DNA of 64,000 nucleotides, taken from Eledone cirrhosa. Its lineage: Eukaryota. Location: contig OZ024740.1 in the NCBI GenBank assembly GCA_964016885.1, positions 241,676,001-241,740,000 on the forward strand, read 5' to 3'. Positions 1-59,432 of the stretch are shown here, piece by piece. Every line of letters starts with the position of its first letter. Position 1 is the stretch's first letter. The translations under genes were made by a program, and so were the position numbers. The notes under the pieces are model-generated. The model saw only the letters and a list, made by a program, of their open reading frames with translations. It was not told the DNA's origin and ran no database searches.

Positions 1-265
1 AACGTACGTAACGAACGCGCAAACACACACATACACAAACATGTAGAACATGTGACATCGTCGTCGTGGTGTTATAAAATGTTCGTTTATTATAGTTGAC
101 TATAGCAGTTTATTTTAAATAAAATGTTATAATGTTTTAATCCAAAGGAAAATAAAAATGACATATTGTTAATCCTGGGGTTTAATATTATAACCTTGTA
201 AAATTTGATTTGGTCGAGCCATTTGAGAATGCATAAGGAAAATACAGATAGACAGAGAGACAAAG

Positions 266-3324: not shown

Positions 3325-6300
3325 TCTTTTGGTTTTATAATTTCACAAAGTTTTACCGGTTTCTAACATAGACACAAGACTCTCTCATTGGAATTTACAC
3401 AACATCAACTAGGTAGATAGGTATGTACGCATGCATGTGTATATATGGATGTGATTGTATGTGTGGATGTCTGTTTTGACTTGTATGTGTGCATGTGTAT
3501 ATGCTTTACATCTGTACATGTGTATATGCAGTTATTAGATGCAATATTTTTGGAATGTTTTACATATTTTTACTGTTCCATTAATGGATTGTACTTGTAA
3601 TTTCCTAACTAGTTGTGTTCTTTCTGTTCCTGTGAAGCCTAGCTTTTCGACATTTGTATTGAGGCAGTTACTAACATACCCTAGTGCCCCAATAATCACA
3701 GACATAAATCTAAAGGTGTAATCAGGGTGGAGTATCTGCAGATTTCTCATCAGTTCTGCATAAATATTCTCCTTTTCACTAATCTTTGATATTATATTGC
3801 CATCTGCTGGGCAGCTAATTTCCACTACTGTGCATGCTTTCTTCTCCCTGTCCCATATCATAATATCAAGTCTGTTATGCCTGCATTTTATTGGGGTTTT
3901 TACTGGAACATACCGCCAGTACTCTTTCATATTATGTACATTGATGTCTTCCACATTGCTGTAGCTTTTAATGTGTTTATTATCGGGGCTATCCTTTTCA
4001 CGAACTGCATTGTACAGTGTTTTGGCCACTACATCTTGCCTCATAGGTAGATAGTACCGCGATGACATCTTTGGACAGCTGCTGATGACATGGGTGATAT
4101 CCTCGATGTTAGTTCTGCAGAGTTTGCACTTGTTATCACATCTAGGCGTTTTGCCTGCATCCCTATCTCTTTTGTGAATCAGGTATTTCGTGTTAATCTC
4201 CTGTTCTTGGATTGCAAAAGCGTATCCTTCAAAGTGGGAGACAATATAGCGGTTGTTGGTCCAAGATAGACTACTTTCCTTATCTATATTATTCTCACCT
4301 GGAGCTTCCTGGCAACATTTCCATGCATGATTTTTTGCTGATAAGTATGCAGTTTTCCATCCATGGATTCCTTGCGATACTGCTAAGCGACTTCCATGGG
4401 TGTGAGTTTTTGATTATCACACAGGGAATATCCCTCGAGGAGTTCATTCCCAACTCTCATGATCTTATCTGTTTCATGCAGATAGACTTGCTCGAGAAAC
4501 GGGCTCCTACGCTTCGAGGTTCGTAGATGTTGTCGGAGAGATATGATGCGACATTCAAATGTTGTCTGGACTGATGTTAGGCCTCTGCCTCGCTGGTTAC
4601 ATTTCAAGTAAAGGCGGTCTATGTCACTGTTGATGTAGAAGTTTCCGGTGTTGTTTAGTATTTTTCGAGTTCCAACATCAACTGGTCGGATTTCGTCTAT
4701 CGTCCAATTGAGTATTCCAAACGTTGGTGTTAGGACAGGCACAGCAAACACATTGTGAGCCACTGTTTTGAGTTCCGATCTTTCTTAATCGGGTGTAGTA
4801 TTCCCTGGTTACGCGTTCTTTATTACAGATACCATTATAGGATATGTTCTCATCTATCCCCAGGTATCTTTAGCAGTCCTCATCAGATATCGGTGAAACA
4901 GTTAGGCCATTGATGACAATGTCGCTAGATTGGGTTGTTGTTTTTCCCCGCTTTACAGTCATGTATGAGCATTTATCTTGGCCAAACTCCATTCCTATAT
5001 CCTTTGAGAACGTTGTAACCAGATCAAGATTTTTCTTCATCCCATCCATGTTCTTGGCATAGAGTTTCAGATCGTCTACAAAGAAGTTATGGGTTAGGTT
5101 CGAATTTGTGTCCTCCTGTGAACCAATTATGTATCCCTCACATTTCTTGAGCAGAAAAGGATAAGGGGTTTAATGACAAGATGAATAATATCACAGAGAG
5201 ACTGTAGCCCTGAAATATACCCCTGCGATATTTTATTTTATCAGTGAAAATAGAGTCCTCCCTCTCTGTCTTTAACCTTAGGATAGTAGCCCAAGAAGAA
5301 GATAGCCTCTCTATGGCTCTGACAATAATGTCTGGGAATTTAGCAAGTTGGAGGGCCTCTATCATCCGAGAGTGGGGAACAGAATCGAAAGCTTTCTTGT
5401 AGCCATATTCCTCTTAAGTTGTCGCACCTCCGACATCGCAGTTTTGTTGATTAGTTGTTCAGCACATCTCCAAACCCCTTTCTTTCCAGCTGCTTGTTCA
5501 TCTGTGATGATGTTATTATTTTCACAGTGATCTTGGAGGAATAGATTCAGGCAGGCTGTATACATCTTATACATCAGGTTCTGGCATGCAATGGGTCGGT
5601 AGTTTTTTGCCAAGTGGGTGTCTTTGTTCTTGGGGACCAGTAATGTTTGTGCTAATGTCAACCATTCTGGTATAAGTGTATCTCCCTTAAGAACTTGTTG
5701 GAAGATGTCGGTAAGATACCTCCGATAGAATATCAGTTTTTTGTACCAGTAGCCGACAATCATGTCTCTTCCTGGTGTTTTCTTATCTTGGAGTTTTCCT
5801 ATCACAGTCTCAAGGGTACCCTCACTTATTTCGTATGTTTTTGTTGTAGTGAAGGAGCCATAGTTCTTTCGGATTTCTCTTAGCCACACTGCATCTTGGT
5901 TAAAATTCTTCTTTTCACCCCATATTTTGTGACACTTATTATTTTGCCCTTCATATATCTATAGACTGATGTTTGGTTTCGTCTGAATCTTTTATTAAGC
6001 ACTTTTCTTTCAGGTATCGGCGTTTTTCGCTAACATCTCTTTCAGGTATCGGCGTTTTTCGCTAACATCTCTCAATTCTTGTTTGAGGGTGATCCGCTTA
6101 TATTGGAGAGCTCTGATTCTACTGTTTCCAAACATCGTCTCTATTTTATTTTTCACTCTTTGTTGGTGAGGAATGAAGTCTTTTCGTAGGTCAGCAATCT
6201 TTTTTTCTATATTAGTTATATATGATGGTATTTTTGGTGATGTTGTGTTCTTGTTAATATCTCTGCTATCACCAAGATAATGCTTCACTGTCGTCGCTAA

Positions 6301-7636: not shown

Positions 7637-10488
<2,852 letters not shown>

Positions 10489-10508
10489 TGTATATATATA
10501 TATATATA

Positions 10509-10701
10509 TAACGAAGGAGGTGTGGTAAGGAACCAGATGGACCATAACGCACCAGAGTACTCAATACTTAGGGTAGTAGAGTGGGTAACAGGAAAATGTT
10601 TAACCCCGACGGCATAGCTTAAGCCGTTTCGACGGCTATTTATGGACTGAAATAGCCGTTGAAACGGCTTGAGCTCTGCCGTCGGGGTTAAACATTTTCC
10701 T
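10509..10701 (-). repeat. (TA)n-flanked fold-back module, family P (half hammerhead), copy 1
   Basis: Palindrome 10590-10701; same leader sequence as 30266, 57198 and 19230. Confidence 0.85.
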
Positions 10702-10949
10702 ATATATATATATATATATATATATTGGTAAACGGAATAGAAAATGCTGACAAATTGTTCACAGTTGTAAAATGGTTTAATTAGGAATAAAAGAGTATTA
10801 GTGATTGTATGGGTTAGTATTCAGTTGTGGTTTTAAGTTTTTAAGTTTTCACCGGTTGCGCATTTCTAAATGCTTTTCAAAAATAATTTTGAGATAGAGT
10901 GTCCGTGCTGTTTGCTCTGATCTGTATATATATATATATATATATATAT

Positions 10950-15194: not shown

Positions 15195-15986
15195 AGAGAT
15201 AGAGAATCAGCCATACATCGCACAAGAAACGCGGTATATTGTATATATACCAAATACATATTCTATAGAAGAATATGTACAAAGGTGGAATCATAAGGGA
15301 AACCTTATAGCGCTATTTATACCGGGAGAGTATGGCTAAAATTGATCCATGTAGTCGATCATCGAAAAAAATCAATCAATATATTCGATCATCGAAGACA
15401 AACTATCGATAATGATTAAACGACATGTGACTCAGGTATTCATCAGAGGTCTAGTCTCACCATTCTAAGAGAAATATAGAATGAGGATGGTAAATAAATC
15501 AATATACCGCTCCAAACCTCTTAACTTGTCTGAGCTCGGTGGCTATAACTACCGTTCCTATTTCTAGCGGAATTATCATCCACATTGTGGATATTTATTT
15601 GCCTTTGGTCTAACGTATTTCACCATGTGTTTCTTAGCATGGTGCACGAGTTGGACTTGGCTGTGGATATTCCCAGGTATATTGATTTATTTACAATCTT
15701 CATTCTATATTTCTCTTAGAATGATGAAACTAGACCTCTGATGAGTACCTGAGTTTCACGTGGTTTAATCATTATCGATAATTTGTCTTCGATGATCGAA
15801 TATATGATTGTTTTTTATGTTTCGTTGATCGATTACATAGATCGATTTTCAGCCATACTCTCCAGGTATAAAATAGCGCTATGTTTCAACTATGATTCTA
15901 CCTGCGTGAATATTCTTCTATAGAATATATATTTGGTATATATACAATATACCGTGTTTCTTGTGCGATATGGCTCTTTCTCTCTC
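15195..15986. repeat. Long imperfect inverted repeat (arms about 15195-15508 and 15677-15986)
   Basis: Arms are reverse complements over about 310 bp with a spacer of about 170 bp; TA tracts nearby. Confidence 0.9.
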
Positions 15987-16036: not shown

Positions 16037-16112
<76 letters not shown>

Positions 16113-16157
16113 CGTAAAATAAGAAAATTATAAAATTAACATACTTACTAAAATATC

Positions 16158-16239
16158 ACTTCCAACTAATTAGTTTCTGGAATGGAATAAATATATTTTC
16201 CGAAGAAGATACTGACAAGCATTCCGTCGTCAGGGAAGT
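16158..16239 (-). ncRNA. Type I hammerhead ribozyme motif (inverted twin of 16639-16720)
   Basis: Same core and stems on the minus strand. Confidence 0.7.
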
Positions 16240-16638
16240 CTATTCTCATCTAAGTATCCAGGCAAAGCGTGGACACTGGAAACTTATTAAAAAATAATTC
16301 AGTGGATAGAAAATAGCAAAGCGTGGACTGAATTCCTAGCCATTGAGAAAATCACTGCCTCTGCGTCGGTGGCAAATTCAAAAAGAATCAATCACGTGAC
16401 ATCGAGGTCAATCAGTGGAAAGTGGTTTGCTAATAAGACAGCGGCCTGCCTGCTACCATAGCAGCAGTCATGGCCAATATTGCTCGACAAATAATTTGGA
16501 GATAATTATAAAGAATTAATATCTAGTAACATATATATACATACAGATGCACCACGCTTTGCTATTTTCTATCCACTGAATTATTTTTTAATAAGTTTCC
16601 AGTGTCCACGCTTTGCCTGGATACTTAGATGAGAATAG

Positions 16639-16720
16639 ACTTCCCTGACGACGGAATGCTTCTTTGTATCTTCTTCGGAAAATATATTTATTCCATTCCA
16701 GAAACTAATTAGTTGGAAGT
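16639..16720 (+). ncRNA. Type I hammerhead ribozyme motif
   Basis: acttcc-CTGACGA-c-ggaatg...cattcc-a-GAAA-ctaattag-TT-ggaagt: 6-bp stem I, 6-bp stem II, palindromic stem III. Confidence 0.7.
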
Positions 16721-16880
16721 GATATTTTAGTAAGTAAGTTAATTTTATAATTTTCTTATTTTACGTCTCTCATATTATTGTTCTGCAACCCCATGCATTG
16801 AAGCACAAAGTTACTAAGACAAAACCTATATATTTGCTAGCATTGATATGTATGTATATATATGTTACTAGATATTAATT

Positions 16881-19227: not shown

Positions 19228-19355
19228 TCCGAGTTCGGATCTAGCTGTCGATACGGCCGGAGCTCAACCTGACTCTTTTCCTATTACCCACTCTACTCCC
19301 CTAAGTATCGATCGAGTTCTCTGGTGCGTTATGGTTCCTTACCACACTTTCTTTG

Positions 19356-19358
<3 letters not shown>
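19228..19358 (+). repeat. Family P module, degenerate and not folded back
   Basis: Reverse complement of 57198-57335; ends in (TA)n. Confidence 0.75.
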
Positions 19359-19393
<35 letters not shown>

Positions 19394-21543: not shown

Positions 21544-24500
21544 GTTCTGGTTTTATAATTTCACAAAGTTTTACCAATAGAGAGAGAGTCGGTTTCCAAC
21601 ATAGACACAAGACTCTCTCGTTGGAATTTACACAACATCAACTAGGTAGATATGTATGCATGCATGTGTAGATATGGATGTTATTGTATGTGTGGATGTG
21701 TATGTTTTAAGTTGTGTGTGCATGTGTATATGCTTTGTATCTGTACATGTGTTTATGCAGTTATTAGATGCAATATTTTTGGAATGTTTTACATATTTTT
21801 ACTGTTCCATTAATGGATTGTACTTGTAATTTCCTAACTAGTTGTGTTCTTTCTGTTCCTGTGAAGCCTAGCTTCTCAAGATTTGTATTGAGGCAGTTAC
21901 TAACATATCCCAGTGCCACAATAATCACAGGCATACATCTGAAGGTGTAATCTGGTTGGAGTATCTGCAGATTTCTCATCAGGTCTGCATAAATATTCTC
22001 CTTTTCACTAATCTTTGATATTATATTGGCATCTGCTGGGTAGCTAATTTCCACTACTGCGCATGTTTTCTTCTCCCTGTCCCATATAATATCTGTTCTG
22101 TTATGCCTGCATTTTATTGGGGTTTTTACTGGAACATTCCACCAGTACTCTTTCATATTATGTACATGGATATCTTCCACATTGTTGCAGCTTTTAATGT
22201 GTTTATTATCGGGGCTATCTTTTTTACCACTACATCATGCCTCATAGGTAGATAGTACCGCGATGACATCTTTGGATAGCTGCTGATGACATGGGTGATA
22301 TCCTCGATGTTAGTTCTGCAGAGTCTGCACTTGTTATCACATCTAGGTGTTTTGCCTGCATCCCTATCTCTTTTGTGAATCATGCATTTCGTGCTAATCT
22401 CCTGTTCCTGGATTGCAAAAGCGTACCCTTCAAAGTGGGAGTCAATATAGCGGTTGTTGGTCCAATATAGACTACTTTCCTTATGTATATTACTCTCACT
22501 CTGGAGTTTCCTGGCAACATATCCATGTATGATTTTTTGCTGATAAGCATGCAGTTTTTCATCCATAGATTCACTGCGAAACTGCTGAGTTTGAATTTTG
22601 TTTATTATCACAAAGGGAATATCTCTCAAGGAGTTCCTTCCCAACTCTCATGATCTTATCTGTTTCATGCAGATAGACTTTCTTGAGAAACGGGCTCCTA
22701 CGCTTCGAGGTTCGTAGATGTTGTCGAAGATATATAATGCGACATTCAAATGTTGTCTGGACTGATGTTAGGCCTCTCCCTCCCTTCTTACGTTTCAGGT
22801 AAAGGCGGTCTATGTCACTGTTGGTGTGTAAGTTTCCGGTGTTGTTCAGTATTTTTCGAGTTCCAACATCAACTGGTCGGATTTCGTCTATCGTCCAATT
22901 GAGTATTCCAAACGTTGGTGTTAGGACAGGCACAGCAAACACATCGCGAGCCCCTGTTTTGTTTTGCGCAGAGAGTTCCGATGATCAGATCTTTCTTAAT
23001 CGGGTGTAGTATACCCTGGTTACGAGTTCATTATTACAGATATCATTATAGGATATGTTCTCATCTATCCCCAGGTATCTGTAGCAGTCCTCATCAGATA
23101 TCGGTGAAACAGTTAGGCCATTGATGACAATGTTGCTAGATTGGGTTGTTGCTCTTCCCGTTTTACAGTCATGTATGAGCATTTATCTTGGCCAAACTCC
23201 ATTCCTATATCCTTTGAGAACGTTGTAACCAGATCAAGATTTTTCTTCATCCCATCCATGTTCTTGGCATAGAGTTTCAGATCGTCCACAAAGAAATTAT
23301 GGGTTAGGTTCGTATTTCTGTCCTCCTGTGAGCCCATTATGTATCCCTCACATTTCTTGAGCAGAAAGGACAAGGAGTTTAATGACAAGATGAATAATAT
23401 CACAGAGAGACTGTCCCCCTGAAATATACCCCTGCAATATTTTATTTTATCAGTGAAAATAGAGTCCTCCCTCTCTGTCTTTAACCTTAGGATAGTAGCC
23501 CAAGAAGAAGACAGCCTCTCTATGGCTCTGACAATAATGTCTGGGACTTTAGCAAGCTGGAGGGCCTCTATCATCCAAGAGTGGGGAACATAATCGAAAG
23601 CTTTCCTGTAGTCTAGCCAGACTGTAGTCATATTCATTCTAAGTTGTCACACCTCCGACATTGGAGTTCTGTTGATTAGGAGTGTTCAGCACATCCCCAA
23701 ACCCCTTTCTTTCCAGCTGTTTGTTCATCTGTGATGATGTTATTATTTCACAGTGATCTTGGAGGAATAGGTTCAGGCTGTATACATCTTATACATCAGG
23801 TTCTGGCATGCAATGGGTCGGTAGTTTTTTGCCAAGTGGGTGTCTTTGTTCTTGGGGACCAGTAATGTTTGTGCTAATGTCAACCATTCTGGTATAAGTG
23901 TATCTCCCTTAAGAACTTGTTGGTAGAGGTCAGTAAGATACCTCCGATAGAATATCAGTTTTTTGTACCAGTAGCCGACAATCATGTCTCTTCCTGGTGT
24001 TTTCTTCTCTTGGAGTTTTCCTGTCACAGTCTCAAGGGTACCCTCACTTATTTCGTATGTTTTTGTTGTAGCAATAGTTCTTTGGGATTTCTCTTAGCCA
24101 CACTGCATCTTGGTTGAAATTCTTCTATTCACCCCATATTCTGCTCCAAAAGGAATCTATGTCTTTCTGGGATGGGGCCTCAGTGACACTTTTTTTATGC
24201 CCTTCATATCTCTATAGACTGATGTTTGGTTTCGTCTGAATCTTTTATTAAGCACTTTTCTCTCATCTACCTTCTTCAGGTATCGGCGTTTTTCGCTAAC
24301 AGCTCTCAATTCTTGTTTGAGGGTGATCAGCTTATATTGGAGAGTTCTGGTTCTACTGTTACCAAACATCGTCTCTATTTTATTTTTCATTCTTTGTTGG
24401 TGAGGAGTGAGGTTTTTTGTGTTTGTTTGCATGTAAGGAGCATTGTCACATGTCCTATGTTTTTTCGTAGGTCAGCAATCTTTTTTTCTATTTTAGTTAT

Positions 24501-24990
24501 ACATGATGGTATTTTTGGTGGTGTTTTGTTCTTGTTAATATCTCTGCTATCAACAAGATAATGCTTCACTGTCGTTGCTAGGGCATATAAACAGGCATTG
24601 ATTTGCCAAAATGTTGGGGTTTTTATCTGTCGTAAATATTCATCCCCTATTTCGTCAATAACACGTAATATTTCATTATTTGGCATTTCGTCCCAGTGTA
24701 GCTTCATTCTATTCATATAGTCAACGGAGGGATTGTTTTTTGCCATTTTATAACAATTAAATAAATCATTATTAAGTTTGCAACTCCAAGAGAAATGCGA
24801 TTTATAATTTCGGTTTCTTCTGTAGCTACAACTGAATAAAGTTTGATTACCTTCCTTGTTCTTTGTCTTCGGTACTTCCTTAATTTTTTTGTTGATGTTG
24901 TGTTCAGCCATGCTGTCGGAGATAGTATTCATCTTAAATTTAATAGATAGTCTCCCACGCCAAAATATGCGACTGATCGCGTTGACTGTA
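21544..24990 (-). mobile_element. RLE-type LINE family A copy 2 (longer 5' end)
   Basis: WLDYRKAFD, GIFQGDSLS, FVDDLKLY, CRLC..EDITHVISS, HNRTDIIWD; highly similar to 3325-6358; flanked by (TGTA)n. Confidence 0.92.
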
Positions 24991-25102
24991 TTATGTATGC
25001 ATGCATGCATGCATGTATGTATGTATGTATGTATGTATGTATGTATGTATGTATGTATGTATGTATGTATGTATGTATGTATGTATGTATGTATGTATGT
25101 AT

Positions 25103-26566
25103 GTTATCTCTTTCTCTTAATTTCGAGTATATTTTTTTGACCGGCCACCTTCCTGGTGGCAAGGTTGTAAAAGAAAAGAAATTGTCATCCCTTGAATCGC
25201 AAGAATGTTTTGCAAATTTTGAAGGTGCCAGCTATCGCAGCCATTTGTAGACTATGAATTAGGGAGCTGCGCTTTTTGTCCGCAAATCCAAGTTCAGTCA
25301 TACTTTGGTCCAAGTGGGTTGGTATATAACCCGTAGCTCCAATAATGATGGGTATGAAGCTAAAGGTGTAACTTAGATTCTGGATTTGTAAACTCCTCAT
25401 CAATGGTCCGTAGATGTCCTCCTTCTCCTGTATTTTTCTGACAACATTTATATAAAGTGAACAGCTGATCTCCACAACAGAACACGTTTTCAATGTGTGG
25501 TCCCAAACAACAATATCAGGCCGGTTGTGCTTTAATTTGGTGGCAGTTTTTATTTTCAGGTTCCACTAGTATTCCTTAGTGCCATCTGTCTCAATATATT
25601 CTCCCTCGTTTGTTGTTAATTTTGTTTTCCGAAGTGCGTTCCAGATGGTTCTAGCTATCCCATCGTGTCTCATGGGAGGTAGTAGCGAGATGACATTCTT
25701 TCGCAGCTGGCAACAATGTGGCTTACATCCTCGATCTTTGTTTTACATAGCCTACATTTATTGTCAGCTGCTGGCCCTCCCCTTTTGTGCAGCAGATATT
25801 TGGTAGGGAGTTCTTGTTCCTGTATTGCATAGAGATATCCCCCAAGGTGTGATGTCATAAAGTTGTCGGAACTCCATGCCAGGCTTTTTGAGTGGTTTAT
25901 CCCCTCTATGGTCTGTGTTTTACGTCTTAAGTATCCATGCACAACTTTTTCTGTAAATTGGTCAATTTTTTTTATCTTGTTTGAACATTGTATATGATCT
26001 TCCGATTTCTCTGGGTGAGAGATTTATATCAGGCTTTATTCCAAATCTCTCCTCCAGATCAGTCGCTATTCTAATGATATTTTTTTTTTCATGCTCATAA
26101 ACCTGGGCAAGATAGTTGCCAACCTTTTTCCCCTGTTGAAGGTGTTGCTTCAGTGTTATTATCCGGGTCTCATATGTTGTTAATATGGATTTTACACCCC
26201 GGCCACCTTCATTGCGTGAGAAGTATAGCCTATCCACATCACCATTGATGTTAAAGTTCCCAGTAACACTGAGAAGTTTGCGAGTTCTAACATCCATCTC
26301 ACCTAGTTCTTGCAATGACAAGTTCAGCAGGTCAAATGTGGCGTTAGAATTGGCACAGCATAAGCATTGTGGGAAATGTATTTGTTGTACGCTGACAGTT
26401 CTGATGACCATATTTTCTTTACTCTTCTGAGGTATTCAGTTCTGGTTCTCTCCTTATTTATGGGTCCATCATATCTGACATTCTCATCCTGTCCAAGATA
26501 TCTGTAGTTGTCACCTGACTGTAGAGGTTGTATTGTCAGGCCGTTCATCTCTAGATTTCTAGAAGA
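25103..26566 (-). mobile_element. RLE-type LINE family B, 5'-truncated
   Basis: YRYLGQDE, DVDRLY..RNEGGRG, CRLCK..EDVSHIVASC, HNRPDIVVWD; related to but distinct from family A; flanked by (TGTA)n. Confidence 0.88.
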
Positions 26567-30205: not shown

Positions 30206-30265
<60 letters not shown>

Positions 30266-30266
<1 letters not shown>

Positions 30267-30540
30267 CGAATGAAATGTGGTAAGGAACCAGGTGGACCAT
30301 AACGCACCAAAGTACTCAATACTTAGGGTAGTAGAGTGGGTAATAGGAACAAGTAAGACCCCGACGGCTGAGCTCAAGCCGTTTCGACGGCTAATTCTGT
30401 ACTGAATTAGCCGTCGAAACGGCTTGAGCTCAGCCGTCGGGGTCTTACTTGTTCCTATATATATATATATATATATATAGGAGTAAGTAAGACCCCGACG
30501 GCTGAGCTCAAGCCGTTTCGATGGCTAATTCTGTACTAAT
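30266..30540 (-). repeat. Family P fold-back module copy 2 plus a third half-arm
   Basis: Perfect 55-bp arms 30343-30397 / 30404-30458; extra arm 30477-30540 between TA tracts. Confidence 0.9.
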
Positions 30541-31442: not shown

Positions 31443-31836
31443 ATTATATATTAATAAAGGACGAAGACCATTTTCAGTTGATTCAGGTTTGTTTAAAACT
31501 CCGTTATACATATTTCCCTGAGGACTATCAGTTATGATAGCCTTAGCTCTTCAGAGTGCAAAACCTAAAATAAACATTGAAAGTTCCTAACAAACCTTAA
31601 CAACACCACGCGTTCGACCGGCCCCTGTATCTCGGAAAGTACATTTTATCGGGGAAATTATTGGATTTTTCCAAACATAGAGGTTTCTTAGGAACTTTCG
31701 ATGTTTATTTTAAGTTTTGCCGTCTGAACAGTTCAGGCTATCATTACTAATGGTCCTCAGTGAAATATGTATAACGGAGTTTTAAACAAACCTGAATTAA
31801 CTGAATATGGCCTCCGATCTTTTATTAATATATAAT
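31443..31836. repeat. Imperfect inverted repeat (arms about 31443-31597 and 31681-31836)
   Basis: About 155-bp reverse-complementary arms ending in ATTATATAT. Confidence 0.9.
31720..31777 (+). ncRNA. Type I hammerhead motif (decayed); twin on minus strand 31501-31558
   Basis: ccgt-CTGAACA-stem II-GAAA-tatgta-TA-acgg; the twin keeps CTGAAGA, so the two arms together give an intact consensus. Confidence 0.6.
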
Positions 31837-47594: not shown

Positions 47595-49530
47595 TTGATA
47601 AGATGGTAATGGGGGGAATTGCAGGAGGAGACACACTGATCTTGCCATGGGGTGGATAGACTACAGAAAGGCATTTGACATGGTGCCTCATTCTTGGATT
47701 ACCAAAAGCCTGGAGATCTTCAAGGTGGCAGATAACATCAGACAGTTGTTGGGCAAAAGTATGAGGTCCTGGGAAACAGAGTTGACATCAACTGGAGAAT
47801 CCTTGGGAAGGGTGAAGATCAAGAGAGGTATCTTCCAGGGAGATAGCCTGTCCCCTCTGTTGTTTGTCCTTGCCCTGATGCCCCTGACCAGTGTACTGCG
47901 AAAAGTGAGAGCAGGATACAGCTTGGGAAAGGGAGGGCTTACCATCAATCACCTCCTCTTCATGGACGATCTTAAGCTCTTCGGGAAGAGTAAGAAGGAG
48001 TTGGATGTGCTTGTTGACACTGTCCGTATTTTCAGCAGTGATATATGTATGCAGTTTGGTATTAGTAAGTGTGGAGTCATTGTGATGAGGAGGGGTAAGT
48101 TGAGCAGAAGTAACGGAATCCAGATACCAACAGGTGAGATGATAAAGGAAATTGACTCTGAGGAAGGATACAAGTATTTGGGCGTTCTGGAGGCTGATGG
48201 CATAAAGAACAAAACAATGAAGGAATTGTTAAGAACTGAATACATTCGGAGAGTAAGGAGCGTATTGAAGTCACATCTGAACAGCAGAAATGCCATAAGC
48301 GCAGTAAATTCCCGAGCTGTGTCTATTATTAGGTACAGTGCGGGAATTCTGAGATGGAATGTTGCTGAACAAAAAGAAATGGATAGAAATAATAATAATA
48401 ATAATAACAAAAAGAAATAATAATAATAAAAAGAAATGGATAGAAAGATTAGGAAGCTATTGACTATCTACAACATGTTCCACAAGAGGAGTGATGTTGA
48501 TAGACTCTACTTAAGGAGATCTGAAGGTGGAAGAGGTCTTATCAGCATAGAGGACTGTGTTCAGATGGAGAAAAACAACCTACACAAATACGTGACTGAT
48601 AGTAAGGAGCCAATGCTCAGAACTGTACTGAAGGAGGGGACAATAGGCCAGGGGATGTCCAAGGAGGAAATAACATCAAGGAGAAAGAGCAGCCTTCAGG
48701 AAAAATCCCTTCATAGTACCTTCTTTGAGAAAACTGAATTTAGAGATCCACAGACATGGAACTGGTTGAAAAGAGGAGACCTTAAAAAGACTACAGAAGG
48801 AATGTTAATGGCTGCGCAGGAGCAGGCCCTCAAAACGAAGTGGTTGAAACACCATATTTACAAGGAGGAGGCTAGCCCACTGTGCAGGATCTGTGGAGAG
48901 AGAGAGGAGACTCTGGCTCACATTGTATCCGAGTGTAAACACCTAGCCCAGACTCACTATAAGAGCTGGAGACATGATGTGATGGGCAGGGTGATCCACT
49001 GGCACCTATGCAAAGTAAACAATTTACTACATTCTGAGAAGTGGTATGAGCATAAGCCAGAGTCGGTGATAGAAAACGATCAGGTGAAGGTGCTGTGGGA
49101 TTTTAGGATACAGACGGACAAGAAACTGGAACACAATAGACCAGACCTGGTGGTTGTGGACAAAGAAAAAAGATCGTGCCTGATAGTGGATGCGGCCTGC
49201 CCATTCGACACGAGAGTGCAAGAGAAGGAGAGGGAGAAAGTTAACCGATACCAGGACTTAAAGTGGGAGGTAAAAAGGATTTGGAACTGCCATGAAGTCA
49301 AAGTGATCCCGATTGTCATAGGCGCACTAGGGACTATCTCCAAAAGTTTCCAGGGATGGTTAAAAAAAATTGGCCCCTTCACGCTTTTTGGAACGCTTCA
49401 AAAGGCATGCTTGCTGGGAACAGCAAGAACCCTCCAATACGTCCTGAATATCGGAGGCTGCAGGTAGTGGCTTGATATTCATTTCAACAAACTTTCCAGT
49501 TAACTAACATCAATGACTGAGACTCAAAGA

Positions 49531-55499: not shown

Positions 55500-56695
55500 A
55501 ACCAGAGCTGGTAAAATATCTGGGCGATCCGAAAGTAAATCATACCTATGGTATAATCCTCCACACAACAACTTAGTCAAAACTAAATGACCTTATATAT
55601 TCTTCAAGTTACTAGATACGAACTTTCCGCCATTACATAGATACCACAACATTTTAAATAGGAATACAATAAGACATGCTCAACAACAGCGAACCTAGAA
55701 AGTTATATAACCGCTCTTAATAATAAACGCCTCCAAAAACACAATAACAGCATATAGAACTTAATTCATATCACAGCCTGTTAAATTGTCTACCCTTAAA
55801 GAAAAAACAAATTTTAAACGACAAGCACTGGTACATTGTGACTGCAGAAAATCGGCGTGATGTTACAACAAACCAGAACATTTTCAGATATGAGGGATCC
55901 ACATCCAACTTGTTTAAGAACTTCTACCGCTTTAGCTAGCAAAATATGGAAATAAAAAAAATGAAAAAATAACGTATGATCTATCGCGGTCCATTCTACG
56001 ATTTTCCCACTCTACCAACGTGATAGAAGGGATTGGAATCTTTGTGCGATGGAAGTATTAGAAATCTTAACAGGAAATAAATGACTGAATTCAAGATAAT
56101 ATATGATATTCAACTGTAAACGCAAGTACCAAAAACCATCTTCTAAGTATAACCCTAATAAATACAGTATTAGAACATATAACTCTACACCCATCTGAAA
56201 CTTTATCAATCAGTCAAATAGTCAATTTTTATTACATAGATTGGAGATGCTAAATATTTGTTCTTGACTTCACCCTAATCTACAACTGTCAAACTGTCCA
56301 CTCCAATGTTAACAGAATTTATTACCAGTACATTCTCTTACTCTTGTCACACCTCTATCTGTAATGGTTGTGTTCATACGACTAACACTAAATAAATCTA
56401 TTGCCCATCCATTCAATTAACGACTCCAATAGTTTACACTATCACTTTTAGTATAAAGTTAATTACTTTTCAAACAATTGCATGTACAATTTAAGTAAAA
56501 CCAGATACTGTCGGATACCTATTGGATAACTTAACAGTCCACGCTCCTTACTCTCACCATTACCAAAAATATCTCGGAATTATTCATTTTCTGATGAATT
56601 GTTGAAGTATAATGACTAACATACAGCACGAATGATAGGAAATTTCAATAGCTCGTAATGACATAATTGAATAATGAAACACGTAAAAATATATA
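55500..56695 (+). mobile_element. Degenerate Nematis-like PLE 3' part with terminal repeat region
   Basis: YLWYNPPHNNLVKT...FFKLLDTNFP...RYHNILNRNTI across frameshifts; HHR at the 3' end. Confidence 0.65.
56586..56690 (+). ncRNA. Type I hammerhead motif with long stem II insertion
   Basis: atttt-CTGATGA-attgtt...aataat-GAAA-cacg-TA-aaaat. Confidence 0.6.
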
Positions 56696-57197: not shown

Positions 57198-57358
57198 ACA
57201 AAGAGGGTGTGGTATGACACCAGGTGGACCAAAACGCACCAGAGTACTCAATATTTAGTGTAGTAGAGTGGGTAATAGGAAAAGAGTCAGGACCCCGACG
57301 GCTGAGCTCCGGCCGTTTCGATAGCTAGATCCAAACGGGGTCCTGACTCTTTTCCTAT
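57198..57358 (-). repeat. Family P module copy 3 with a short inverted arm
   Basis: Arms 57275-57297 and 57336-57358. Confidence 0.85.
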
Positions 57359-57379
57359 GTAAATATATACATATAATTC

Positions 57380-59432
57380 TTAATGCCAGTTACTTCAACG
57401 GCACCATACCAGACACGTACGTTTCCTTAGCCCTGAGGACCATCTTGTTCAACCTGTGCCGATAAAAATGAATCGGAAAATGTTTACTCAAAAAGGAAAA
57501 TATAGACAAATAGGGAAACAGAGAAAAAAACCCAAGCCAAAGGAAGTTAATCTGGATGATCCAGGGGAGACAATTTGACGTAAAAATGCGAACGAACGCT
57601 AAATTAGCTAATGATTATGAGTAGGTTAGAAAAAATTGAGAGATCAAGAAATATATAAACCAATATTAAGGAGGCCAGTTCTCTAAATGGCACTTAGAAA
57701 CCATGAGAACAACGCGAGAAGAATTCTGTACGTGTATTAAGTGGTTTGTTATCGTTTGTGGAGATTATTCAGTATCAACCACTTCTCATCATTGCATAAT
57801 CTGCAGGCCTTGAATCCATTTATATATGGTCGAGATTTTTCTAGTATCTTCTATTTGATAGAGAAGTCTATGTTCTTGTCTTTCAGTGGCCATATTTGAT
57901 TTGCCAAAGTTGTGGTTTTTCTTTTATTTGGGTATCTGAGCATCGTTTCGTGATTAAGGAAGCTGGTTTTAAATCTGTTCTCTGATATACCGATGTAATT
58001 CTAGGATTCCTTTTGGTGTTGTTGATTCAGTGAAGAAACCTCTGCTTTGTATATTATCACTGGGGTGTTGTAATGTTGCTCCAGCGGGCATGACTCAGGT
58101 TTTTTACAAGAACATCCATATACTTTGGGGCTGTTTTTTTTTATGCAGGAGGCGTGATTTCATGTTTCTGGCACAAGAGTATCCACTTTTGACCGTATAA
58201 CGATTAACGATCAGGTGGTATTTGTGTCCTAGGGGAAAGTGGGTATCTATGAGGGCTAAAAACGTCTTTCCGACATTAGTTTTGACATTTAAAGAAAATG
58301 GAGGAGAGAACCAGGGTTTTACTTTATTTCTTGTTTATTTTCTTTTTCATATTAGTATTTAGGGAGTGGCATGGAGTGTATGAAATATTCTCGGTGGAGC
58401 TGCTATTGCGTAAGGTTGTATTATAGTAGGGGGCTGCTCTATCGGAGATGACTTAGTTAGACGAGAGATTAGATATCCGCTTACTAATAAGTTAACACTA
58501 GTGAGGTTGGTGGATATGGTGATTTTGAGCATTAGTCCCTTAAACTTAGGGATTAAAGGTTTCTTAAAGGTGTCGAGGTTGTGACGATGTTTATGGCTCC
58601 TAAGAGCCAGGCGTTCGCCATGGCATAAACCCGTCTGGAAATCCGAGTATTTCGTACGTACGGTATCAAGGATAAAGAGCCCCACCAAGGTGCAGGCGCA
58701 AAGTCTGCGCTGTCAAACGATCCTATAGGAACATCAAAGCAGTCGTCTGTCGTGGATTACTTCATCTAGGTCTCCCTCTTGTTGAAGGGGCAGGTTTTAC
58801 GGCAGTGAGATATTACCAGTCGGTCCAAGTCATGTATATCGCTAAACCTATCGGCGAAGACCAGCGCCTTATCGATAGAGTCACTGGATATCGACGGGTT
58901 AAAATTCATGATATTGAATTGGATAAATCTGGCTCTATCCGTTTGCTTAAGGGAGTTAAGCCAATCTAAAACCGCTTGGCTATTTTCCCATTGGTTAAGC
59001 TTACATAGTTTATTAATATTCTTATACATATTTCTAAGTAGGTTCTTACTGACTAGGCCTAATTCTCTCTTGGCGGGGTTAATGAGACTATATATTGGGT
59101 CCGTCATGAAGTTGTACTTATGGTCTTCGAGAGTTACGCAAGCCTCTCTCTTCGCAAAGCATTCTAATCTATTTTCTATTTTGATGGTAGTGACGATGTA
59201 TTGTGAATGGAGTTATATGTATTGCGAGTTATATTTAGATTGTATTGACTTGTCTAGTAATTGGCTGTGGATTGTAGATTGAGTTCATAGAGGTTGTTAG
59301 TTTTATCCAATAGAACGAAATTCTTATTGGAGTTCTCTATTTAAATTGTTTTGGAAAGAGGTAGAATGTTTGCGGAAGGTGGTGGTAATCACTAGATTAG
59401 TTAGATCGGATTAGAAAGAAGCGAGTCCATTT
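57380..59432 (-). mobile_element. Nematis-like Penelope element, degenerate
   Basis: [72 protein letters not shown]...YIGISENRFK. Confidence 0.85.

Follow-up and report, generated by a model that had tools for sequence, protein, structure and literature searches.

The palindrome and its surroundings

An inverted repeat lies in a (TA)n run near the middle of the window (the whole 64,000-nt stretch of DNA analysed), in a host genome of 3.0 Gb that is rich in microsatellites. Its arms, 30343-30397 and 30404-30458, pair at 55 of 55 positions around a 6-nt centre, TGTACT, and the palindrome that the initial annotation reported at 30343..30458 is therefore genuine. Exact matches in the genome number 21,988 for a 30-mer from the long arm and zero for its reversed control, so the palindrome is not a product of chance. 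Judged by sequence, a Hydra-type Penelope-like element has thousands of mini-copies in (TA)n and this palindrome is among them, which agrees with its earlier reading as the end of a Penelope-like element. The features are as follows; signed positions refer to the element RNA, with the A of a conserved AGT in loop II of the hammerhead taken as +1.

30206-30265 (left edge approximate), no strand: (TA)n target run, left side, from sequence
30263-30407, plus strand: arm A (long), apparently a cDNA-sense copy of element RNA from +141 to -4, from blastn and parent match
30263-30342, minus strand: 80-nt 'tail', from site B (UAU at +59..61) to site A (UAU at +139..141), from sequence
30403, minus strand: putative transcription start (+1), the A of TCAGT/TTAGT, in the hammerhead stem II loop
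30404-30407, no strand: GAAT, the 4-nt microhomology where arms A and B meet head to head, from sequence
30404-30458, plus strand: arm B (short, inverted), RNA +7 to +61, ending at start site B, from sequence
30459-30476, no strand: (TA)n target run, right side, from sequence
30477-30539, plus strand: solitary arm of another subfamily, from site B to about +1 to -2, without a long arm, from sequence
10508-10703, no strand: diverged two-arm copy of 86% identity and the same geometry, in (TA)n upstream of a different Penelope-like ORF
57208-57357 (right edge approximate), no strand: two-arm copy of a divergent subfamily
19242-19362, minus strand: decayed old copy of the same divergent subfamily

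The RNA sense of the element at arm A is the minus strand. Positions 1-144 of the unit of a parental copy, L213, align by blastn to 30403-30260, and the extension GAAT of arm A has the same letters in the parents L009 and L060. Each arm holds the 3' half of a hammerhead ribozyme, as had been recognised from the letters alone, with the 3' strand of stem II, GAAA, stem III, GUC and GGGGU; in arm B, GAAA lies at 30416-30419 and GUC at 30436-30438, and the 3' strand of stem I is also present. No CUGANGA is found 5' of either arm, its place being taken by the mirror-image arm, again as annotated. The central hairpin of 12 bp exists in the DNA, yet the native stem II, for which it was taken, is a different structure. 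In the parents the 5' strand of stem II is another one and the loop spans about 35 nt; the hairpin is thus only an arm facing its own mirror image.

The diverged copy described at 10590-10701 does have the geometry claimed for it (49/52 pairs, 8-nt centre). Its short arm and that of the focal copy end at TTCCTA(T) in (TA)n, the long arm continues with TTCCTATTACCC, and the TAT overlap is genuine. The third, solitary short arm at 30477-30539 was absent from the initial annotation. The palindrome at 10.5 kb sits in (TA)n at the 5' side of a second, frameshifted Penelope-like ORF (8703-10170, minus strand; RVT_1 at E 6e-10, GIY-YIG weak), which was ruled out as a parent of the palindromes (21% identity, E 0.34). 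Decayed ORF fragments with 30-55% identity to the parent protein are located at 57770-59206 (minus) and 55516-55674 (plus). Other inverted-repeat elements with arms of 130-224 nt, at 16103-16775, 15379-15805 and 31456-31822, lie outside the palindrome family and are possibly MITEs. Decayed ORFs bearing reverse transcriptase (RT) occur at 3538-5958, 21767-26435 and 47602-49464, and presumably belong with RTE-type LINEs, which they resemble. Rfam gave no hammerhead among the matches listed for the window (150 of 158), and its miRNA-model scores for the hairpin neighbouring the palindrome were below threshold.

The parent element and its ribozyme

The parent was recovered from read-through copies, which supply the part missing in the arms. 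L213 contains a partial tandem, the unit of which is 3,118 nt long, and an open ORF of 719 aa, whose ATG is at +232. The ORF carries YRDD at 348 and VIY...YIG at 591, the signatures of an RT and, at the C terminus, of a GIY-YIG domain. Pfam returned no family for the 719-aa ORF at E 0.1, and the assignment to endonuclease-positive Penelope-like elements thus depends on these motifs. Partial tandems (pLTR), an inverted 5' copy and a tail at one end are present in L213 and the long insertions, of which L211-L224 are bounded by opposed A and B arms.

The Hydra clade is defined by RWK, DKT, a CxCx5C linker, CxxC and CxH, and by the absence of CCHH (PMC8557442). The parent has RWR at 37, DKT at 117, CNCPDRSIC at 572, CNLC at 670 and CKH at 698; it has RWR and not RWK, and no CCHH was seen by eye. 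Insertion into (TA)n, another trait of the clade, was evident in 92/96 anchors, which were positive in a TA-run test at site A. By these motifs and the (TA)n target, the parent fits the Hydra clade.

A complete type I hammerhead is present in the parents on the sense strand, 3' of the ORF, with stems I-III, GAAA, a NUH site and a 3-8 pair, when U3:A8 is allowed. The CUGANGA core that had been expected in unfolded parents was not found: among the matches listed, UUGANAA occurred in 96/100, CUGANAA in 4/100 and CUGANGA in 0/100. Nevertheless, U3:A8 is a published hammerhead variant of functional type (PMC4209133), so the ribozyme idea survives the absence of CUGANGA. The hammerhead fold is the lowest-energy structure for L213 and lies within 0.8-1.5 kcal/mol of the lowest in three other parents; the 211-nt hammerhead region is no more stable than its shuffles (z 1.21). 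The GUC site is read through in most copies, and truncation at the ribozyme cut site is not enriched, with about 4 arm ends at +41..+43 among 96 anchors (hand count).

A non-LTR retrozyme is defined by tandem monomers with a complete hammerhead in each (retrozyme preprint). This identity was rejected for the short copies, which are head-to-head and contain only 3' halves. Elsewhere in the genome, four hammerhead matches exactly 3,543 nt apart (G000:C1:91473232-91483894) mark a tandem array of a related unit.

Genomic copies and the start sites of the arms

The sample comprised 96 of the first 100 tail matches listed, which lie within the initial 24 Mb of contig 1, and was sorted by hand. In 69 cases a short two-arm copy could be positioned on a parent; these 69 were tabulated by hand curation from two alignments. 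The rest comprised 2 unplaced two-arm copies of the divergent subfamily, 2 with a very short second arm, 1 in which both arms were of the long type, 8 that were long or complex, 1 internal tandem junction and 13 one-arm copies.

The arms start at two fixed sites. Arm A, the long arm, begins at UAU +139..141 and arm B, the short arm, at UAU +59..61; the 80 nt between them are the tail. Nearly all of the 96 anchors begin at site A beside (TA)n, and the B arm terminus lies within about 3 nt of site B in 68/69 copies (by eye). Arms hardly ever start at the further UAU triplets, +83 and +103, from which it follows that microhomology alone does not fix the sites. The same two start sites bound the long insertions. 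Solitary B arms also exist (30477-30539 in the window, L273 and L276), and in L119 and L113 the B arm is hundreds of bases longer than arm A.

The two arms vary in length independently. Arm B reaches further than arm A in 33 of the 69 copies, the two are equal in 10, and A exceeds B in 26. Junctions show microhomology in 29 copies, are blunt in 16 and contain inserts in 24. In L148, L136, L177, L268 and L282 the inserts are short templated repeats of arm ends, which suggests repeated priming or template jumps while joining. Subfamily variants are nearly always common to both arms, with one clear exception: near 501 on the minus strand of L072 the diagnostic bases assign the two arms to different subfamilies (3 differences), a hint of two templates or of a template switch. 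By hand count over the 96 anchors, about 12 long arms end at +46..+68, near site B, and 4 at +69..+95; this is a weak hint of collision with a second cDNA on one RNA.

Where the arms stop

The other ends of the arms are clustered. Among the 69 copies, 50 A arms and 56 B arms end within -5..+7, and none extends beyond -5. Genome-wide, 27,646 matches were obtained for +34..+5, 4,233 for +18..-12 and 3,263 for -22..-56, one step followed by a plateau; the patterns differed, with 30-35 letters and unequal degeneracy, and the counts were not normalised, making the ratios approximate. Breakpoints are thus strongly clustered near stem II, as had been predicted, but the step is located in the stem II loop, off the stem itself, at the putative start site.

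In the parents, TATTTAAA occurs at -29 and TTTAGT or TTCAGT at +1, which by the consensus sequences are TATA-like and initiator-like respectively. Transcription start within the pLTR has been reported for other Penelope-like elements (PMC8557442). The point at which the arms stop would accordingly be a capped transcription start inside the hammerhead stem II loop.

An additional base is found at this point. After arms ending at +1 the next base genome-wide is C in 3,688 cases and T in 739, and read-through copies have C or T at that position only 14 times. A subfamily with a templated C at -1 was rejected as the source (14 vs 4,233). In short arms of one subfamily the extra base is C in 332 and T in 45. 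When 30 of the 332 were examined, the C was explained by the partner arm in 7, was untemplated in 21 and ran straight into the target in 2. The extra C thus lies beyond the partner's supply in 23/30, the partner stopping at +2 or later in 11, and 6 of the 30 show C...G, the mark on both arms. A non-templated C at an arm end is what copying a cap is expected to leave, and the RTs of L1 and AMV are reported to leave an extra G on copying a cap (PMC4038843).

In the divergent subfamily, which has 3,294 matches, the stop position is unchanged and again lies behind a conserved AGT, here within a different loop sequence; the extra C occurs in only about 2-3/30 (by eye), and no read-through parent was seen among these. 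Arm ends are spread over about 12 nt and not confined to one base, so resection or several starts are needed. Runs of A/T follow directly after +1..-3 at the junctions of L017, L091, L112, L153 and L168, as from slippage or untemplated addition at an RNA end.

Origin of the two arms

It is probable, and we hold it with considerable confidence, that both arms are first-strand cDNAs primed from the cut ends of (TA)n and run off the capped 5' end of the RNA. The transcript would start in the pLTR, inside hammerhead loop II. The endonuclease would cut both strands of the (TA)n run, one target end priming at site A and the other at site B by 3-nt pairing. As only 141 and 61 nt of RNA lie 5' of sites A and B, both cDNAs would run off the cap, and the two would then be end-joined head to head. 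The arms would hold only the 3' half of the ribozyme because the transcript begins inside it. Were the same two sites used in the downstream pLTR, the arms would be long and the layout that of the textbook inverted pLTR. A Penelope-like protein is described as cutting both target strands in vitro and extending them from two internal sites, which mark the limits of the tail, and as using uncleaved RNA, with a dimer predicted (PMC11167929). One RNA may have been copied twice, which would need strand displacement, or two RNAs from one source locus may have been used; both are possible, and variants common to both arms do not establish two independent RNAs.

Perfect palindromes are unstable. It is conceivable, though unlikely, that the first cDNA, having run off the cap, folds back where microhomology happens to exist, and that later asymmetric deletions of the centre scramble the apparent arm lengths. 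Besides this instability, the proposal is favoured by the concordance of the arms and by a minority of junctions that fit it, the focal one included. However, deletion cannot add the +1 base and an extra C to arm B. Fold-back after run-off also leaves unexplained the fixed site B, given the other UAU triplets at +83 and +103, as well as the solitary B arms and the far longer B arms of L119 and L113.

Twin priming might also have taken place on an RNA whose end was processed, either at a 3' splice site (TTTCATTYAG) or by an endonucleolytic cut, so that the stop is not a transcription start; this too appears quite unlikely. The stop site does resemble a 3' splice site, and in D. virilis the Penelope intron is stated to end at its hammerhead (PMC4209133). 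Nevertheless, a cut after AG would produce ends at +3, whereas the arms retain AG and the extra C follows +1. The TATA-like box at -29 speaks against a processed end, as does the finding that 0 sampled copies continue into a spliced upstream exon.

The mechanism originally proposed, in which the cDNA folds back at hammerhead stem II, self-primes the second strand and rejoins the target at TAT, is highly improbable. The palindrome centre does lie in the stem II region, the arms share variants, and self-priming has been put forward for such palindromes in rotifers (PMC3846280). The focal junction, with its 4-nt microhomology and 6-nt loop, suits fold-back and twin priming alike, so the focal copy alone is not decisive. 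Across the genome, however, the junction predicted for a native stem II fold-back has 0 matches, against 3,263 arms copied through, and microhomology with a loop of at least 3 nt, the geometry of hairpin priming, is present in only 4/69 junctions (13/69 under the laxest reading). A self-primed arm can hold only the content of the first arm less the loop, and since B outreaches A in 33/69 copies, B is not a copy of A. Moreover, the last base of a hairpin can have no mirror copy within it, but +1 is present on B arms, together with a non-templated C of their own. Fold-back at stem II was therefore rejected as a general mechanism on the absent junction, the arm reach and the terminal C of arm B. 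The TAT microhomology with (TA)n does matter, as was supposed; with the short arm not copied from the long arm, it is more likely a priming site than a rejoining site.

Significance

The focal palindrome is a real feature of a known kind of element, and its copies are an unusually clean test of how inverted ends are formed. Inverted pLTRs, tails, junction palindromes, hammerheads and two-site initiation have all been published already, and a cephalopod Hydra family (Hydra-1_Obim) is listed in the supplement of PMC8557442. The same source names the origin of tandem and inverted Penelope-like structures as an open question, and self-priming is the standing proposal for the palindromes (PMC3846280). 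Among open-licence papers and preprints, no account was found of twin priming or cap run-off in Penelope-like elements. The junctions, short, readable and present in the thousands, discriminate between the models in favour of two first strands templated by RNA, and they link two-site initiation in vitro to a genomic product; they also point to an exact candidate start site and would place the promoter start inside the ribozyme. Twin priming with cap run-off would likely explain the inverted ends of these elements.

The chances are about even that, in Penelope-like elements generally, inverted ends and tail reflect programmed twin priming by a dimeric RT, and that the promoter in this family fires from the ribozyme loop. 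Such a dimer would engage the two ends of a double-strand cut at two fixed RNA sites, possibly with a single RNA and strand displacement. If this is true, half a hammerhead opens the mRNA and a whole one closes it, and thousands of short palindromic copies keep a record, to the base, of where the capped RNA begins. In addition, short palindromic copies of this kind could be mistaken for MITEs or miRNA hairpins.

Comparison with known systems

In LINE-1 twin priming, the second target strand primes on the RNA and yields a 5' inversion joined by microhomology. The second priming site of LINE-1 is variable and the two cDNAs cover different stretches of RNA, whereas here the site does not vary and the overlap of the cDNAs produces an inverted duplication.

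The Poseidon element of Anolis carolinensis (PAc) in vitro resembles the present family in that two internal RT start sites delimit the tail, both target strands are cut and extended, and uncleaved RNA serves as template (PMC11167929). The RT start of PAc is not homologous to the cut DNA, whereas at both sites here 3 nt are in common with the target; the tail of PAc measures 30-40 nt and that of the present family 80 nt. In its accessible text, the PAc account offers no explanation of inverted arms and no tie to a start site or cap.

Members of the Hydra clade, Penelope-like elements with a C-terminal endonuclease (Craig et al. 2021, PMC8557442), resemble the parent in RW[K/R], DKT, the CxCx5C linker, CxxC and CxH, and share with it a C-terminal GIY-YIG-like domain, a (TA)n target and a hammerhead in the pLTR. 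Compared by description, Hydra-1_Obim has 2,507 bp and 'no pLTR', whereas the parent has a 3,118-nt unit, a clear pLTR and an 80-nt tail. Copy number here is far above the 'small number' described for Hydra families, and most copies are palindromes of about 200 bp.

The U3-A8 hammerhead of Cercyon, one of the type I hammerheads known from metazoan Penelope-like elements, resembles that of the parents in its U3-A8 core, G10.1-C11.1 pair and long, bulged stem II (PMC4209133). Unlike the Cercyon type, the parents have a full stem III (a monomer-type fold), and their loop II, about 35 nt in length, apparently contains the promoter start.

Rotifer Penelope elements have a head-to-head inverted pLTR, a one-arm tail and a junction palindrome, as here, and their pLTR likewise contains TATA and initiator-like motifs (PMC3846280). 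The rotifer palindromes were explained by self-priming on an antisense template, whereas the copies described here point to two sense-templated first strands.
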